Below, piece after piece: positions 13,604 through 51,401 of a stretch of DNA of 51,420 bases (its first letter is position 1; every line of letters starts with the position of its first letter). Below the pieces are notes generated by a model. It was given only the letters and a program-made list of their open reading frames with translations. It was not told the origin of the DNA and did no database searches. The stretch comes from Patescibacteria group bacterium. Lineage in GTDB: Bacteria; Patescibacteriota; Minisyncoccia; Minisyncoccales; Staskawiczbacteraceae. The translations under genes were made by a program, and so were the position numbers. The stretch lies in assembly GCA_038065835.1 (NCBI GenBank), contig JBBTQB010000007.1, forward strand, positions 1 to 51,420. Direction: 5' to 3'.

Positions 13604-14269
13604 TTACTTATTAATTTCTCTTATTAACATAAACGCTTCAGCATATTCTAAGCCAGCTTCTATTCCCCTCTTCTTTGCTAAAATTTCTATTCCCTCCAGT
13701 GACCGGGGATGAGGATACTCTTTCAATTCGCTTTTGTAACAAGCCATGGCTTCTTTTTTGGCATCAACAAAACCTGAAATATCTTCGTAGTAATTTGGCA
13801 CGAACACGCTATCTCTGGGCATATTCCATTCAGTTTCAGATAACACTTCATAAGCAAATATTTTTTTTACTAATGATCCGGGTTTAGGACGAGCGGCAAC
13901 CAAACCAGCTCTGGAAACTATTTGATGGTCGTGGTTAATGTCGCCAAAAAATGGAATGTATAAAATTTGCGGTTTTAACTTTTCGCAAATTTTAATAAGC
14001 TGGTCGTTCAAGTCTTTTTGGGCAATAGTGTCCAGTCTCAAGGCTGGCAAATCCAAAAAGAAGGTTTCTTTAAAACCTAATGCCTTATTTGAGGCTTCTA
14101 TTTCCTTCTGTTTACTTGCAATATACTCCTCTGACCAATCGGGAACTCGAGGTTTTGTTATAATACAAAGATAAACCTCATCTCCGGATTCCACATATTT
14201 TTTAATTGTTCCTCCGCAACCCAAAACCTCGTCGTCTGGATGCGGAGCAATTACTAAGATTTTGCTCAT
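13604..14269 (-). CDS. PIG-L/LmbE family N-acetyl-sugar deacetylase
   Basis: 221 aa. Signature VIAPHPDDEVLGCGGT and a downstream HxDH-type histidine cluster (DINHDHQ). Confidence 0.8.
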   Translation of the reverse strand: MSKILVIAPHPDDEVLGCGGTIKKYVESGDEVYLCIITKPRVPDWSEEYIASKQKEIEASNKALGFKETFFLDLPALRLDTIAQKDLNDQLIKICEKLKPQILYIPFFGDINHDHQIVSRAGLVAARPKPGSLVKKIFAYEVLSETEWNMPRDSVFVPNYYEDISGFVDAKKEAMACYKSELKEYPHPRSLEGIEILAKKRGIEAGLEYAEAFMLIREINK

Positions 14270-14302
14270 CTTTTGCGAGCTTTAGCGAGCATAAAAGTGA
14301 GC

Positions 14303-14455
14303 ACCCCGCTCAAATTTTGCCATCGCAATTACTCTTCTTACGATAAATCTGGCTAAAAAATTTGGACTCTTACAACCTGCGTGGGGCGAATAGCCCCATC
14401 CCTTGTTGAGCGAAGCGGGTTGCCACCCAGCGTCTTGCAAAATTTGAGCTGGGGT
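14303..14455. repeat. Large family-F-like structured element in the leader of the PIG-L gene
   Basis: 18-19-nt inverted termini ACCCCGCTCAAATTTTGC (14303-14320) and GCAAAATTTGAGCTGGGGT (14437-14455), closely resembling family-F termini. Internal hairpin TGGGGC-gaata-GCCCCA. G+C-rich. Confidence 0.75.
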
Positions 14456-14519
14456 CATAATCATTTAATATATTTAATTTCTTTAATACTATCAGATTTT
14501 TTCCTTAAAGCAATAATTT

Positions 14520-14552
14520 AAATAAAAAATCCGCTGCAGCTTCCTGCAACGG
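14520..14552 (-). terminator. Rho-independent terminator after the WbqC gene
   Basis: Minus strand CCGTTGCAG-gaag-CTGCAGCGG followed by ATTTTTTATTT. Confidence 0.7.
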
Positions 14553-14690
14553 ATATGTTTAGTTGTCTAACTAAGCACAAGCGACAAGACTCCTTTTTTG
14601 TTCGTCAGAAAAATCTATCACAGAGTCTTACCCTTTCTTATAGAGTAACCCTTGATCCAATCAAAGAACCTTTTTAAGGATACCATACTA

Positions 14691-15443
14691 TTATAAATAG
14701 TCAATACTTTTCTTAATTACTTCAAGACTCTTCGGCCCTTCATTAAATAATAAATCAATTGCGGAAAGATTTTCCATAAATGGCTCAAATCTTTGGGGGT
14801 AAATTGGGTGTTTGAAGTCCGAAAAAACGAGCTTTAGATTATTATCTTTAAACTTTTCTATTTCAATATAGGATTTTCCACCTGATCCCGAAAGATAGCT
14901 GTTTGCCTTGAATTCCTTGCATAATTCAATTATTAAATCTGTTCTTTCCAGAACGGGATTTTTCGCTTCGCGAATAAATCTCGCGTTCAGACCTTTAAAA
15001 TCGTAATCAGAACTTTTGATAAGGGTGGTTTTAATGCCTAATTCCCTCTTGATATATTGAATGATAGTCTCGTTCAAATCCACCAATTTTTGCCATTTTT
15101 TTGAATAAAGCTTTTCAAAGAACCCGCTGTATTTGTCAAAAAATGGAGTTCTCTTGTAATTAAAATAAATAAGTTGCCAATGGTGTTTTGCCCAGGGAGT
15201 AGAATTGTCTATTTGAACTTCATTTATCTTTTGGTATCCCTTTTTGTTGGCAAGAACTGGCACTGTCAGCCAAACCCAGCCCTGAGAATTAGAGTTAGTT
15301 CTAATTCGGTTACGATTTTGAAATCCCTTTCTAGAGAATTGAAGATGGTCAACCAAAATAAATTCATCGGCTTTAGCCATCTTATAAAAAAAGCCGAGGT
15401 AAGGAAGGTATTCTGGCTGATGAGCAGAAATAGTCATAAACAT
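14691..15443 (-). CDS. WbqC-family protein (copy 1)
   Basis: 250 aa. N-terminal AHQPEYLPYLGFF and FQNRNRIRT are typical of PF08889. Confidence 0.75.
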   Translation of the reverse strand: MFMTISAHQPEYLPYLGFFYKMAKADEFILVDHLQFSRKGFQNRNRIRTNSNSQGWVWLTVPVLANKKGYQKINEVQIDNSTPWAKHHWQLIYFNYKRTPFFDKYSGFFEKLYSKKWQKLVDLNETIIQYIKRELGIKTTLIKSSDYDFKGLNARFIREAKNPVLERTDLIIELCKEFKANSYLSGSGGKSYIEIEKFKDNNLKLVFSDFKHPIYPQRFEPFMENLSAIDLLFNEGPKSLEVIKKSIDYL

Positions 15444-15450
15444 GACACAA

Positions 15451-15540
15451 ATCTACAAATTTAATGCAAATTTACAGATATGCGAATACGTATTTGCATA
15501 TTCGTAGATTGGCATTATTTGCATCGTATTCGTATCTTAC
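15451..15540. repeat. Family-D AT-rich repeat array (ATTCGTA / ATTTGCAT words, imperfect palindrome)
   Basis: Near-palindrome ATGCGAATACGTATTTGCAT (15480-15499). ATTTGCAT occurs three times (one inverted) and ATTCGTA twice to three times. Shares words with 38588-38672. Confidence 0.7.
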
Positions 15541-15543
15541 AAT

Positions 15544-16212
15544 TTATTCGGGGGGCTTGTTTACGCCCTCTTTACCATAAACTCCGCGTCTTGACAAAAC
15601 CGCAAAAAAACCTAAAAATAATATTTTAAAATCCAGCCAAAAAGACCGATTTTCAACATACCAGACATCTAATTCTAACCTTTCCCGCCAAGATGATACA
15701 AAACCTCTTCCTTTAATATCCACTAAACATATTAGGCCAGGTTTTACTGATACTCTCTTTTGCCAAAGTGTAGCTGGAAGAATATTTTGGTTAGGATACT
15801 GAGGTAGAGGCCTTGGCCCAACTAGACTCATTTCTCCTTTTAAAATATTAATAAATTGGGGCAGCTCATCAAGCGTCCATTCTCTTAAAAATCTGCCTAC
15901 TCTTGTAATGCGGAAATCATCTTTTGAAACTCCAAGACCTAAACCAATTTTTTCTGCATTTTCTACCATTGTTCTGAACTTTAAAAACTTAAATAACTTT
16001 CCATTCTTTCCTACTCTGTCTTGAATAAAAAAAATCGGGCCTTTAGAGTCCAACTTTATTAATAAGGCAATAAGTAAAAACAGAGGCATTAAAAAAACAA
16101 AGGCAATTAAAGTTATCGTGAAGTCAATTATATTTTTTACCCCGTTAAATAATTTTGCCTTTGGTAAAATTACCGCCCTGCGGTATTTAACTGGGTGAAT
16201 TTTTTCCTTCAT
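15544..16212 (-). CDS. Small monotopic phosphoglycosyltransferase (bacterial sugar transferase, PglC/WbaP C-terminal type), copy 1
   Basis: KLDSKGPIFFIQDRVGKNGKLFKFLKFRTM and DELPQFINILKGEMSLVGPRP. Residues about 5-25 are encoded by repeat 16139-16196. Confidence 0.85.
   Translation of the reverse strand: MKEKIHPVKYRRAVILPKAKLFNGVKNIIDFTITLIAFVFLMPLFLLIALLIKLDSKGPIFFIQDRVGKNGKLFKFLKFRTMVENAEKIGLGLGVSKDDFRITRVGRFLREWTLDELPQFINILKGEMSLVGPRPLPQYPNQNILPATLWQKRVSVKPGLICLVDIKGRGFVSSWRERLELDVWYVENRSFWLDFKILFLGFFAVLSRRGVYGKEGVNKPPE
16139..16196. repeat. Family-F structured element spanning the WbqC stop / PGT N-terminus
   Basis: Termini ACCCCGTTAAATA (16139-16151) and TATTTAACTGGGT (16184-16196). 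Inner hairpins ATTTTGCC-ttt-GGTAAAAT and TACCGC-cct-GCGGTA. Confidence 0.85.
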
Positions 16213-16903
16213 CTGAGTTAAATATTATCTGTTTGCTCTCAGGACCCTTATTAAATAATAAATCGATTGATGACATGTTTGGCACGAATGGTTCATATTT
16301 TTGTTTGTAAATAGGGTGTTTGAATTCGCAATATTGATGAGAAAGCCCTGCTTTTTTAAACTTTGATTCATCAACATAAAGCTTGCCACCCTGTCCTGAC
16401 AAATAACCTTCAGCCCCTATCTTTTTGCACATGTCCAAGAGCATATCTGTTTTTTCGCCGACAATATTGTAATCAGAGTTTCTTAAAATTTTAATATCAG
16501 TGTCCAATATTTTAAAAATAGTCCTTAAAATAGTTTCGTTTAAATCTACAAGTTTTTCCCATTTTTTTGAATATATTTCTTCAAAAAAGGGAATGTAATT
16601 TTCAAAAAAGGGAGTGCTTTTATAAGAGTAATATATTGATTTAAAATGTTTTTCCCTCCATTTTAATTTGTTATTTATTAAAACATCTTTTATCTTTTGA
16701 TGGAAACGCCCATGTGTTATAACAGGAACTGTTAGCCAAATCCAGCCATCGGGCCCATTTGAAGTTCTTATTCTATTTCTATTTTGAAACGATTTTTTGG
16801 CATATTGGGTATTGTCAACAAAAACAAAAGTATCGGCATGCATTGCCTTACAAATAAGGCCTATATAAGGGAGATATTCTGGCTGATGTCCTGCGATTAT
16901 CAT
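16187..16903 (-). CDS. WbqC-family protein (copy 2)
   Basis: 238 aa. GHQPEYLPYIGL and FQNRNRIRT. Its TAA stop (16187-16189) lies inside the repeat terminus. Confidence 0.75.
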   Translation of the reverse strand: MIIAGHQPEYLPYIGLICKAMHADTFVFVDNTQYAKKSFQNRNRIRTSNGPDGWIWLTVPVITHGRFHQKIKDVLINNKLKWREKHFKSIYYSYKSTPFFENYIPFFEEIYSKKWEKLVDLNETILRTIFKILDTDIKILRNSDYNIVGEKTDMLLDMCKKIGAEGYLSGQGGKLYVDESKFKKAGLSHQYCEFKHPIYKQKYEPFVPNMSSIDLLFNKGPESKQIIFNSDEGKNSPS

Positions 16904-16914
16904 ATTTAGATATT

Positions 16915-16981
16915 GGGTGTTTGGTGTTAGGTTTTGGCTTATAACGATTCCCCGTTATCTAATACCTAACACCTAAAACCC
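16915..16981. repeat. Intercistronic long hairpin
   Basis: GGGTGTTTGGTGTTAGGT (16915-16932) pairs with ACCTAACACCTAAAACCC (16964-16981) at 16/18 positions. Inner ATAACG-attcc-CGTTAT contains the CCCCGTTA word. Confidence 0.75.
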
Positions 16982-16993
16982 ATCACCTAGCGC

Positions 16994-17611
16994 CTACTCA
17001 TAATCTTTAGAAATTCCGTCTTTGTCATACTGCAAATTGGTCAGCAGAATCATAAAGGGGGTTAAAAATAATATCTTAGAATCCAGCCACAAAGACCAAT
17101 GTTCTATGTACCAAATGTCCCATATTATCCTTTGTTTCCAGGGGAGATTATTGCCTCCCTTTATTATATCCATATTTGTAATCCCAGGTTTCGCCAAAAG
17201 TCTTTTCTTTTCGAGCTCTGTATATTTGACCACTTGGTGGGGCGAAGCCGGCCTAGGGCCCACCAAAGACATGCCATCAAAAATAACATTTATAAGCTGA
17301 GGAATTTCATCTAGTCCAACTCTTCTTATAACTTTCCCAACTCTTGTGACTCTTGGGTCGTCTTTAGATGTTTCATATCTCATGCCAATATGTTCTGTGT
17401 TTTGCTGCATTGTTCTAAATTTTAGCATTATAAATTCTTTTCCATTCCTACCTACCCTTTTTTGCTTAAAAATCACGGGGCCTTTTGAATCAAGCTTTAT
17501 CAAGATAGCTATAACTAAACATAATGGACTCAATAATATAAGCAAAAAAATAGAAAATAAAAGATCTATTATATCTTTTATAACGTACTGAATAGTTAGG
17601 CTTTTTTTCAC
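16994..17611 (-). CDS. Small monotopic phosphoglycosyltransferase, copy 2
   Basis: 205 aa. KLDSKGPVIFKQKRVGRNGKEFIMLKFRTM and DEIPQLINVIFDGMSLVGPRP. GTG start at 17611 lies inside the repeat terminus. Confidence 0.85.
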   Translation of the reverse strand: MKKSLTIQYVIKDIIDLLFSIFLLILLSPLCLVIAILIKLDSKGPVIFKQKRVGRNGKEFIMLKFRTMQQNTEHIGMRYETSKDDPRVTRVGKVIRRVGLDEIPQLINVIFDGMSLVGPRPASPHQVVKYTELEKKRLLAKPGITNMDIIKGGNNLPWKQRIIWDIWYIEHWSLWLDSKILFLTPFMILLTNLQYDKDGISKDYE

Positions 17612-28882: not shown

Positions 28883-28897
28883 GAAATATCGATGCTT

Positions 28898-28948
28898 AGA
28901 GTGCAGGATTCGAACTATCATCAATTGATAGTTCGAATCCTGCACTCT
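28898..28948. repeat. Family-A 51-bp perfect palindrome (23-bp arms, 5-nt loop)
   Basis: AGAGTGCAGGATTCGAACTATCA-tcaat-TGATAGTTCGAATCCTGCACTCT. Contains the TGA stop of the methyltransferase and ends 15 nt before the GT4 ATG. Confidence 0.95.
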
Positions 28949-29946
28949 TTAGCGAATAGGCACATACGAATTATTGGCTGCATTAGTATGCATTTGCCTG
29001 CCTGCCGGCAGGCAGGTATATTGGTATCGCGGTTTATTTGTAGTTCAACAAACATTATTCCGTTATTGCGACCCGTTAATCTTCCAAACGTCCACAAAAA
29101 AAACGCCGGGACAAATCCTATTAAATACATCTTAATCTTTGCCAGAATATACAGTACCTTGGCAAGCAGAGAAGATTTTTTGTTTTCAATAGAATTGCTA
29201 GCCGTCCTAGCTGCTAATCCTGACCTAAATCTGCCGTCTATTGCGCCCATTATCATTTTAAACTGCTCTACATAGCAAAAATCCGATATTTCAAAGTTAA
29301 TTTTTGAAAATAAATTAGAAATTGCCTCTTTATTCCACCTTGTGAGGTGATGTGGGGGGAAATCCCAATTATTCCAATTTGCCAGCATGCGTTCCCTAGA
29401 TGGAGTGCTTATTATCATCTTTCCCCCCGGTTTTAACAACTTCTTTGCGCTTTTGATGAATTTCAAAGGATCTTGGACGTGCTCTATCACTTCAAAAAAG
29501 ACAACATAATCAAACAAGGGCAAATTTTGCCTTTTAAAAAAACCTTCAAATGGTTCAGCAAATACATTTTTTAAGCCAAAATATTTTTTGGCTAATTCAA
29601 TGCCTTTTCGGTCAAAATCAACTCCAAAAACCGTATATCCTCTTTTTTCCAGTTCAGCAATAAACTCTCCCGAGCCGCAACCTAGTTCAAGTACGGCAGT
29701 ACCTGCTGGAAACTGCAAATACTTCTGTAAAAACTTTTTGTGGGACCCGCGATATATCTTTGGGCCTATTACATTTTTTATTTCGTAATCGCTTGTCTCT
29801 TCATACCAATGAGCTCCTGGGTTTTTCGCGCCCCAAAAGAATTGCACCTTACAATCTTTGCATTGGTACATAAAAAACTCATTATATTTCATGATGGGTA
29901 TTAGTTCTCTGCTTTCTTTACAAATTGGGCAAACATTGGGATTCAT
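28921..29946 (-). CDS. Zinc-ribbon + class I SAM methyltransferase with membrane helix; repeat-encoded C-terminus
   Basis: CPICKES...CKDCKVQ. Motif I VLELGCGSGEF. Helix MYLIGFVPAFFLWTF. The last ~30 codons run through the 20-nt palindrome and the 51-bp palindrome. Confidence 0.7.
   Translation of the reverse strand: MNPNVCPICKESRELIPIMKYNEFFMYQCKDCKVQFFWGAKNPGAHWYEETSDYEIKNVIGPKIYRGSHKKFLQKYLQFPAGTAVLELGCGSGEFIAELEKRGYTVFGVDFDRKGIELAKKYFGLKNVFAEPFEGFFKRQNLPLFDYVVFFEVIEHVQDPLKFIKSAKKLLKPGGKMIISTPSRERMLANWNNWDFPPHHLTRWNKEAISNLFSKINFEISDFCYVEQFKMIMGAIDGRFRSGLAARTASNSIENKKSSLLAKVLYILAKIKMYLIGFVPAFFLWTFGRLTGRNNGIMFVELQINRDTNIPACRQAGKCILMQPIIRMCLFAKECRIRTIN
28997..29016. repeat. 20-nt perfect palindrome CCTGCCTGCCGGCAGGCAGG (copy 2, inside methyltransferase tail)
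   Basis: Identical to 28556-28575. Read in a different frame as PACRQAG. Confidence 0.95.
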
Positions 29947-51297: not shown

Positions 51298-51369
51298 TTG
51301 ATTATAGAACAGTTGGCTTTGCTGTATCTTTTTTTCGTAATCCAAAATTAAATCAATGATTTTACTTAA

Positions 51370-51401
51370 AGAGTGCAGGATTCGAACTATCATCAATTGA
51401 G
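51370..51401. repeat. Family-A repeat, solo left arm (AGAGTGCAGGATTCGAACTATCATCAATTGAG)
   Basis: The first 31 nt are identical to 28898-28928. Inverted copy of 19-51. Confidence 0.9.

Follow-up and report, generated by a model that had tools for sequence, protein, structure and literature searches.

What is the strongly folded block of DNA that precedes the PIG-L gene in a member of the Patescibacteria? The block occupies positions 14303-14455 of a 51,420-nt stretch, hereafter the window, which is contig C7 of a 0.69-Mb genome (68 contigs, 34% G+C), and it lies on the minus strand together with the gene. An earlier note on this DNA had left two answers open, a regulatory leader or small RNA on the one hand and the largest member of a superfamily of repeats on the other. 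Our analysis indicates that the 153-nt block and the 39-nt hairpin following it (14264-14302) are probably one copy of a small, non-coding, structured mobile family, similar to MITEs (miniature inverted-repeat transposable elements) and REPINs, which resides in Patescibacteria and mainly in the order of this organism, the Minisyncoccales. The element is dispersed, patchy and polymorphic among close relatives, it is found in either orientation and sometimes in frame, and it is itself invaded by other hairpins.

In the sense of the gene, the window copy is closed by a helix of 18 bp with one bulged base, which we term P0. Its 5' arm (14437-14455, minus strand) reads ACCCC-A-GCUCAAAUUUUGC and its 3' arm (14303-14320) reads GCAAAAUUUGAGCGGGGU; written on the plus strand, ACCCCGCTCAAATTTTGC (14303-14320) pairs with GCAAAATTTGAGC-T-GGGGT (14437-14455), exactly where the closing stem had been placed before. 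P0 encloses an AT-rich variable region (14321-14372), which cannot be aligned among paralogues, and a conserved core (14373-14422) in the form of a three-way junction. The core consists of P1 (14415-14422 paired with 14373-14380), P3 (14400-14410) and P2 (14382-14398), a hairpin of the sequence UGGGGC-UAUUC-GCCCCA with a near-invariant loop and a freely varying stem. That the block is folded is borne out by its energy. Read in the direction of the gene (minus strand) it folds with -64 kcal/mol (z = -4.3, not equalled by any of 200 shuffles), and the plus strand reaches -57.7 kcal/mol (z = -4.0). When forced into the structure of the family described below, the window copy reaches -61.7 kcal/mol, compared with -62.8 kcal/mol without constraint. 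Two internal helices had been proposed from the sequence and they fared differently. The first, TGGGGC-gaata-GCCCCA (14382-14398), is P2 and turned out to be the best-supported helix of the family. The second, GGGT-ggca-ACCC, is formable solely in the window copy and its nearest paralogues and competes with P1 (CAACCCGC/GCAGGTTG), and of these two rivals P1 is the one that covaries across the family.

The family was assembled with a covariance model, R1, built from four paralogues. From the genomes of the order with matches and from related genomes, 84 distinct copies were collected, with lengths of 145-210 nt. P0 comprises 18-19 bp in every copy and carries a bulge or small internal loop; its outer ends (ACCCC/GGGGT) are conserved, its middle covaries, and its inner box AAUUUUGC/GCAAAAUU (also given as AATTTTGC/GCAAAATT) is invariant in the sequence itself, beyond mere pairing. 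P1 comprises 8-9 bp, P2 5-6 bp with its UAUUC loop, and P3 is a variable hairpin of 3 bp in the window copy and up to 15 bp elsewhere. All copies combine a three- or four-way junction core with AT-rich filler that is free of constraint. Across the 84 copies, 30 of 35 base pairs change on both sides (six of six in P2, 14 of 18 in P0), although these counts lean towards the structure of the model because the alignment was fitted to it. Pairing is found in 90% of the cells versus 34-43% with slid partners, and none of 500 shuffles reached the observed score. The fold is therefore conserved in related genomes, by compensatory changes. This is most evident for P2, where stem words as different as GGGGC, GCCCC, GGUAC, GUGGC, GCACC, GUCCC, AUCAC and others surround one and the same loop, which is UAUUC (TATTC in the DNA) in 61 copies, with a few UAUUU and UAUCC variants besides. 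In about 12 copies the core is a four-way junction containing an extra hairpin with a GAAUA loop and a GC-rich hairpin. GAAUA is the complement of UAUUC, and a loop-loop contact between the two is possible in these copies. GAATA-loop and TATTC-loop hairpins with unrelated stems coexist within a single copy.

Wobble pairs show no preference for the sense strand, with 66 G.U cells in sense compared with 132 A.C cells, so that the antisense strand is slightly favoured if anything, and minimum free energies of the copies are alike on both strands. The few variants with G.U in the loops that may kiss divide 4 to 2, which is uninformative in this respect. Such symmetry is expected of a structure that is read in DNA or of one that needs to fold either way round. 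In one locus (L026, G029:C11:105595-105797), a single pair of P0 arms surrounds two cores in opposite orientation.

Strand symmetry would equally suit a function for the host at the DNA level, in which the copies serve as sites for a host protein, as REP and BIME sequences do for gyrase and IHF, in nucleoid organisation, replication or recombination, and in which the fold is recognised on either strand as a cruciform or in single-stranded DNA. The tolerance of both orientations, the sequence-invariant inner box and the presence of GAATA and TATTC loops in one copy, which would offer a loop-specific binder its site on both strands, agree with this idea, as does a pair of orthologous copies at copA, discussed below, that conserves its structured parts. 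We nevertheless regard it as improbable, given the patchiness of the element, which occurs in 14% of the genomes of the order and about 1% of those elsewhere in the phylum, and its presence and absence among close relatives, where a housekeeping site would be expected to be more uniform. A candidate binding protein was not found.

The distribution of the element argues for movement. By BLAST and R1, five copies were found in the genome of the window (G000). Besides the copy upstream of PIG-L on contig C7, they lie between rpmC and rpsQ, beginning 6 nt after the rpmC stop codon (C48), after an FtsW-like gene (C31), upstream of a P-type ATPase gene (C33) and beside the 5' end of the 16S gene (C47), which was identified by eye because it agrees with the universal 5' end. 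The copy on C47 sits about 80 nt upstream of the 16S gene and has its variable region on the other side of the core (L003, G000:C47, 1-50 and 129-288). Paralogues within the genome are at most about 79% identical; stems and a core of about 50 nt are kept and the AT-rich middle is unalignable. R1 matched 11 of 41 relatives and, in the order as a whole, 41 of 301 genomes (14%) belonging to 36 of 199 genera, with between one and at least eight copies per genome. Outside the order it matched four of 400 genomes sampled across the phylum (about 1%). Of the two answers in the earlier note, the repeat therefore comes closest, but the element is not a pure repeat, as compensatory changes conserve its fold. 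Kinship with another repeat of this genome, family F, holds as far as the termini are concerned, which are of the same ACCC...GGGT type (ACCCGGTCAAAT versus ACCCCGCTCAAAT), but the model gives no match to the copy of family F at 1051-1114.

Comparison of orthologous loci revealed empty sites. Between rpmC and rpsQ, the element is absent from all 20 readable genomes of the same genus, and the junction measures 10 nt or less in several of them versus about 190 nt with the element in the window's genome. Three PIG-L orthologues from the same genus lack the element, and in two of them (G024 and G010) the distance to the preceding WbqC-like gene is about 10 nt, which marks the 420-nt spacer of the window as derived. 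Within one genus, the groES-groEL spacer is filled in two genomes (G225, G335) and empty in three (G264, G176, G246). When groEL of G335 is compared with that of G176, the native spacer can be aligned up to the ATGG of the start, followed by an insert of about 205 bp and then by ATGGCAAA and the gene. The element occupies the groES-groEL position in three different families. Short relatives of about 105 nt, which have the termini alone in common with it, are flanked by matching 4-bp TNNA direct repeats (read by eye). Metagenome contigs from the source samples break at the element, and the core is seen there with many different flanks; an empty allele of the site in the window strain was not seen among these contigs, which merely break at the repeat.

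Copies are nested with, or abut, other small hairpin elements, the foreign element lying inside in two cases (L010, L116) and next to the copy in others (copies of G089, and L022). In L010 (G014:C14) it sits within the P2 loop, and in L116 (G267:C9) a CCCCGTTAGA...TCTAACGGGG element sits within the extra hairpin. In many genomes of the same genus, the rpmC-rpsQ spacer (L036-L058) holds short repeats of a different kind, tandem or palindromic, such as TTCTAAATTCTAAATT and CCTAGACCCTAGACCC. Repeats in general seem to land in this spacer. Within the same S10/spc operon of the window's genome, about 530 bp of hairpin-rich non-coding DNA also separate rplP from rpmC (L001, G000:C48, 1354-1882).

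The element stands in a particular relation to start codons. In about 30 sense-oriented copies, a gene starts 8-40 nt past P0, mostly at +33 to +39, and a further hairpin, termed hairpin 2, lies between P0 and the gene. Its 5' arm opens with GCUCAU and its 3' arm has the form ...AAAAUG(A)GC. In 21 of 31 copies adjoining a gene start the AUG is fully paired by hairpin 2 (mean z = -2.9). Copies at unrelated genes and in different genomes show homology in the loop and the 5' arm of hairpin 2, from which it follows that these parts travel with the element. In the window, hairpin 2 (GCUCACUUUU...AAAAGAUGAGC, 14264-14302, minus strand, -13.1 to -13.8 kcal/mol, z = -3.8) holds the PIG-L start codon (14267-14269) and codon 2 in its 3' arm. 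On the other side of the element, an ATG is present at most 9 nt upstream of P0 in 26 of 84 copies, compared with four of 84 control windows (p = 1e-5), and often forms part of ATGG(U)GGC. The 5' flank in the window, ATGATTATG (14456-14464, minus strand), shows this orphan start codon signature of the family with two ATGs immediately before the element. At five to seven loci TGGC or ATGGC stands on both sides of the composite unit. These flanking repeats, together with the comparison of G335 and G176, suggest that one subfamily or more inserts right after the ATGG(C) of an 'ATG GCN' start and regenerates the start at its 3' end. The window copy would be an older, degenerate case of such an insertion; PIG-L begins with ATGAGC (Met-Ser-Lys...) in the window, and the orthologues have Met-Lys-Lys.

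A hairpin on the start codon behind a covarying domain is also what a portable cis-regulatory RNA would look like. According to this explanation, the element is an aptamer-like or protein-binding leader, P0 and hairpin 2 form an expression platform by which the start codon is hidden or exposed, and the copies control translation of a regulon of highly expressed genes (those for ribosomal proteins, GroEL, DnaK and SHMT) along with some others, PIG-L among them. Strong covariation in all four helices, the near-invariant loop and the pairing of the AUG by hairpin 2 speak for it. In the window, moreover, GCUCA has two alternative partners, the UGAGC of the closing stem and that of AUGAGC, which would make a classic switch pair. 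Genes downstream of the copies were identified by Pfam as those for L27, L31, L32, L33, L3, GroEL, Hsp70, SHMT and PIG-L, and by conserved N-terminal sequence as those for S17, CopA, CysS, MiaB and a putative L28, for which Pfam found no family. The enrichment of the ribosomal proteins L27, L31, L32, L33, L3 and S17 and of GroEL, Hsp70 and SHMT in this list favours a regulon, as does the recurrence at groES-groEL in three families. On the other hand, the list is functionally mixed, as copA, cysS, miaB, PIG-L and a recJ-like gene also follow copies of the element, and most orthologous loci lack it even within a genus. About one third of the copies are antisense to the flanking genes, two of them in the spc ribosomal operon of one genome, directly upstream of rplX and rpsN, and others are translated in frame inside genes. 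Neither wobble pairs nor folding energies show a strand asymmetry. In a scan of the whole window with Rfam 15, the check for a known RNA returned no family at the gathering threshold; the best match below it, tfoR with 18.6 bits against a threshold of 70, is due to chance and lies on the P2 hairpin. A leader specific for PIG-L does not withstand the comparison with the three orthologues that lack it, and the element does not track PIG-L or glycan genes. Taken together, a dedicated regulatory RNA appears unlikely to us.

The main reason for retaining it at all is a pair of copA copies in G000 and G001, which share locus and neighbours. Homology between the two starts exactly at the first base of the element. 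Neither arm of P0 differs between them, and two pairs of P1 have changed on both sides in a compensatory manner (C-G to U-A and A-U to G-C), while the filler and the joining segments have become mostly random. This calls either for selection on the copy at its locus or for homogenisation or replacement of copies by active relatives. The covarying fold, the near-invariant pentaloop, these compensatory changes and the position of hairpin 2 on the PIG-L start make a local effect on translation or mRNA stability of PIG-L possible, as a by-product or co-option of the element.

A role as coding sequence can be dismissed. The 60-aa open reading frame (ORF) spanning the element (14282-14464, minus strand) is incidental, as had been assumed: it matches no Pfam family, equivalent frames are closed in the 67 of 84 copies that contain stops in all three frames, and a 1-nt indel shifts the frame in the nearest paralogue. 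An upstream-ORF reading is ruled out on the same grounds. The window ORF and one groEL copy provide a frame that is read through the whole element. Copies in frame within long ORFs were found at L070 and L120, and at L011 the copy supplies the start of a gene. Through a flank common to both, the two antisense copies in the spc operon (L119, G123:C23, 1201-1373 and 2354-2527) add one identical spurious extension, MLTSSNM, to the N-termini of rplX and rpsN.

Trans-acting small RNAs are a further explanation. Each copy would then be transcribed into an RNA of about 150 nt, which the long stem closes and in which the AT-rich variable region serves as seed or guide. A U-rich stretch follows the closing stem in many copies, every copy has a variable region between conserved scaffolds, and a weak promoter-like site (CTGATA-17-TATATT, 9 of 12 positions by consensus match alone) lies just upstream of the element in the window (14467-14495, minus strand). 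However, a conserved promoter is not apparent across copies by eye, copies such as that 6 nt after the rpmC stop sit in operons that leave no room for a transcription unit of their own, and both orientations and in-frame copies occur. Target complementarity was not found for the variable region, though no systematic search was made. Among RNA runs, none was found to contain the locus. We consider this explanation very improbable. Several other resemblances were discarded. The cloverleaf-like core does not derive from a tRNA or tmRNA, as ARAGORN made no call at default settings and four spurious ones at a relaxed score. A T-box-like 'GGGUGGNACC' is confined to the nearest paralogues, the R''/R' core motifs of integron attC sites are lacking, and a consistent -35/-10 pair of an internal outward promoter does not occur across copies; these last three assessments were made by eye.

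We thus return to the mobile family as the most probable explanation; a mobility of the MITE or REPIN kind is suggested by the empty sites at PIG-L, rpsQ and groEL, both orientations, intragenic copies and the absence of strand asymmetry. The element would move as DNA, with a protein provided in trans that recognises its conserved loop and the ends of its stem. HUH transposition guided by hairpins would be the likeliest mechanism, and RAYT-like Y1 (HUH) transposases would be the leading candidates, though they are not linked to the element. Genes with the Y1_Tnp domain (IS200/RAYT-like) occur in 149 of the 301 genomes of the order, in 31 of 41 genomes with the element versus 118 of 260 without it (odds ratio 3.7, p = 3e-4, statistics that ignore kinship). 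Y1_Tnp matches number three in G000 and seven in G089. The three RAYT-like proteins of G000 (C21:5258-5959; C1, about 14.5-15.3 kb, minus strand; C56:6356-6868) comprise 170-233 aa with an HUH region; the longest, of 233 aa, has the HUH motif region and a shorter one is encoded near a contig end. Genes lying between paired copies of the element are housekeeping genes. Downstream of the RAYT gene on C56 we noted a long-range hairpin of about 100 nt with AATTTTG/CAAAATT arms and a GAGCGAAGC motif that is reminiscent of the element.

The insertion would prefer translation starts and, in one subfamily, would take place right after ATGG(C), with an end that regenerates the start. The gene would keep a start codon, now within the 3' arm of hairpin 2. 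At PIG-L, such an insertion would have turned a junction of about 10 nt with the WbqC-like gene into a 420-nt spacer with its own terminator. Occlusion of the PIG-L start, structure at the 5' end and possible processing of the long stem by RNase III would then be consequences of the insertion and not the work of a dedicated riboswitch.

Several findings weigh against this reading. The association with Y1_Tnp may merely mark repeat-rich genomes. The RAYT genes of G000 and G089 are flanked by palindromes different from the element, and each of the three in G000 has a GC-rich one of its own (for example CTTCCGGAGGTCTGACCTCCGGAAG and ACGAGGTCGGACCTCGT). No copy was found near any RAYT gene examined, the best model hit being a 54-nt stem-only match with E = 3e-4. 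An autonomous partner with the same ends was not seen among the 84 copies and their flanks, Y1_Tnp being the one family searched. Direct repeats of the ATGG(C)/TGGC type stand out at no more than the five to seven loci mentioned, they fit a duplication of 4-5 bp and an IS200-type insertion 3' of a tetranucleotide, on which the element would also end, equally well, and the window copy shows no clean target-site duplication. Orientation relative to flanking ORFs is moderately biased towards the gene-sense direction, with 35 copies of the same orientation as both neighbours and 18 opposite to both (p = 0.01-0.03). Genes for ribosomal proteins are enriched downstream (about nine of 30, p = 2.5e-4 against a rough assumed background of 7.5%) and the chaperone genes groEL and dnaK recur there. 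The excess of ribosomal-protein genes may stem from a preference for such targets ('MAK...' starts), from tolerance or from a function. Hairpins known to bind transposases are simpler than the multi-way junction core, which in 12 copies has the complementary loops GAAUA and UAUUC. The constancy of P0 and the compensated P1 of the copA pair belong to the same side of the balance, as does the dependence of the covariation count on the fitted alignment.

These findings leave room for a bolder proposal, which we put forward tentatively and with more doubt than conviction. The element may be an undescribed structured module that homes to the 'ATG GCN' starts of highly expressed genes, inserts after the start codon and carries a replacement start in its hairpin. 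Each landing would then install a portable cassette that occludes the start and controls translation or mRNA stability, and the junction with its GAAUA and UAUUC loops would be an RNA or single-stranded-DNA domain for a factor.

The surroundings of the element in the window are consistent on one strand. All on the minus strand, the WbqC-like gene (14691-15443, assigned by Pfam) is followed by a terminator, an AT-rich stretch, the 153-nt element, the 39-nt hairpin and PIG-L. The terminator had been predicted correctly: the terminator scan places an intrinsic terminator of the WbqC-like gene at 14519-14554, with an 11-bp stem, a 4-nt loop and a T-run, in which the hairpin ATCCGTTGCAGGAAGCTGCAGCGGAT (14554-14529) is followed by TTTTTATTTA. 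The identification of the downstream gene (13604-14269) as PIG-L, an LmbE-like de-N-acetylase, is likewise sound (PF02585, E = 8e-25). Further upstream, the WbqC-like gene and a Bac_transf sugar transferase gene form a module at 14691-17611 that occurs twice in tandem, the copies being offset by about 1466 bp and 72-77% identical in DNA; it corresponds to the repeat families D3, D4, D5 and D7, and its genes were assigned by Pfam. A word of 26-39 nt resembling the 3' half of a tRNA (AGAGTGCAGGATTCGAACTATCATCA) occurs in four copies and both orientations at 26-64, 28885-28951 and 51367-51400. Rfam detects no tRNA in the window despite these words, which may be att-like or tRNA-fragment repeats.

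How does the element relate to known systems? With MITEs it has in common the small size, the lack of coding capacity, terminal inverted repeats in the form of P0, and multiple dispersed copies with insertion polymorphism. REP sequences and REPINs with their RAYT transposases (PMC3116915, PMC3337134) are similar in being short, non-coding, mostly extragenic and capable of forming a long hairpin, with tens of diverged copies that conserve the structure; genomes with the element also carry RAYT-like Y1_Tnp genes, and the strand symmetry would make sense if the hairpins were recognised in single-stranded DNA. However, palindromes of another kind flank the RAYT genes here, the element is a single closing stem around a three- or four-way junction with an invariant pentaloop and not two inverted REPs with a spacer, it targets start codons, and its occurrence is patchy and not lineage-wide. 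The transcribed repeats of the CREE (Neisseria) and ERIC type (PMC2649163, PMC2229807, PMC10969869) resemble it in their size (about 100-160 bp), in a conserved core that lies between terminal inverted repeats, in their position beside genes with which they are co-transcribed, and in presence or absence that differs among close strains. In contrast to these, the element lacks a TA duplication and a known parent insertion sequence, has a different and far more structured core, lies on ATG-GCN starts that are regenerated and resides in Patescibacteria. The RNA hairpin of such repeats can alter expression, through cleavage or protection by RNase III and through promoters at the ends (PMC2649163).

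Rickettsia palindromic elements (RPE) and the in-frame hairpin elements of this genome are likewise small and palindromic, can sit in frame in genes and are mosaic or nested, whereas our element is mostly intergenic, larger, and has a junction core that is absent from families F and B. Translational riboswitches and RNA thermometers share with it a structured domain that is closed by a long helix, an AUG-pairing hairpin thereafter and the possibility of alternative pairing. The element differs from riboswitches in lacking a fixed orientation, a defined gene set, consistent conservation at orthologous loci, an Rfam match and a known ligand. Orthologous sites give a divided picture, since a copy is retained upstream of copA in G000 and G001 and none is present at PIG-L, rpsQ and most groEL sites. 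New in comparison with REP/REPIN, CREE and ERIC are therefore the junction core with its invariant pentaloop, the association with start codons, the attached start-pairing hairpin and the host range. Our literature search found nothing relevant on MITEs or structured RNA motifs in Patescibacteria, the candidate phyla radiation (CPR).

The genomes of Patescibacteria are tiny, and the regulators and mobile elements known from them are few. Within one order, about one genome in seven harbours an element that keeps a complex fold, lands on the start codons of genes for ribosomal proteins and chaperones, spares these starts and remodels the 5' ends of the genes. Spurious ORFs and N-terminal extensions arise from it, assemblies break at it, and it mimics riboswitch leaders in sequence scans. 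If the fold is needed for mobility, the element would be a new structure-specific substrate of transposition; if the host makes use of it, it would be a regulatory RNA structure spread by a mobile element.

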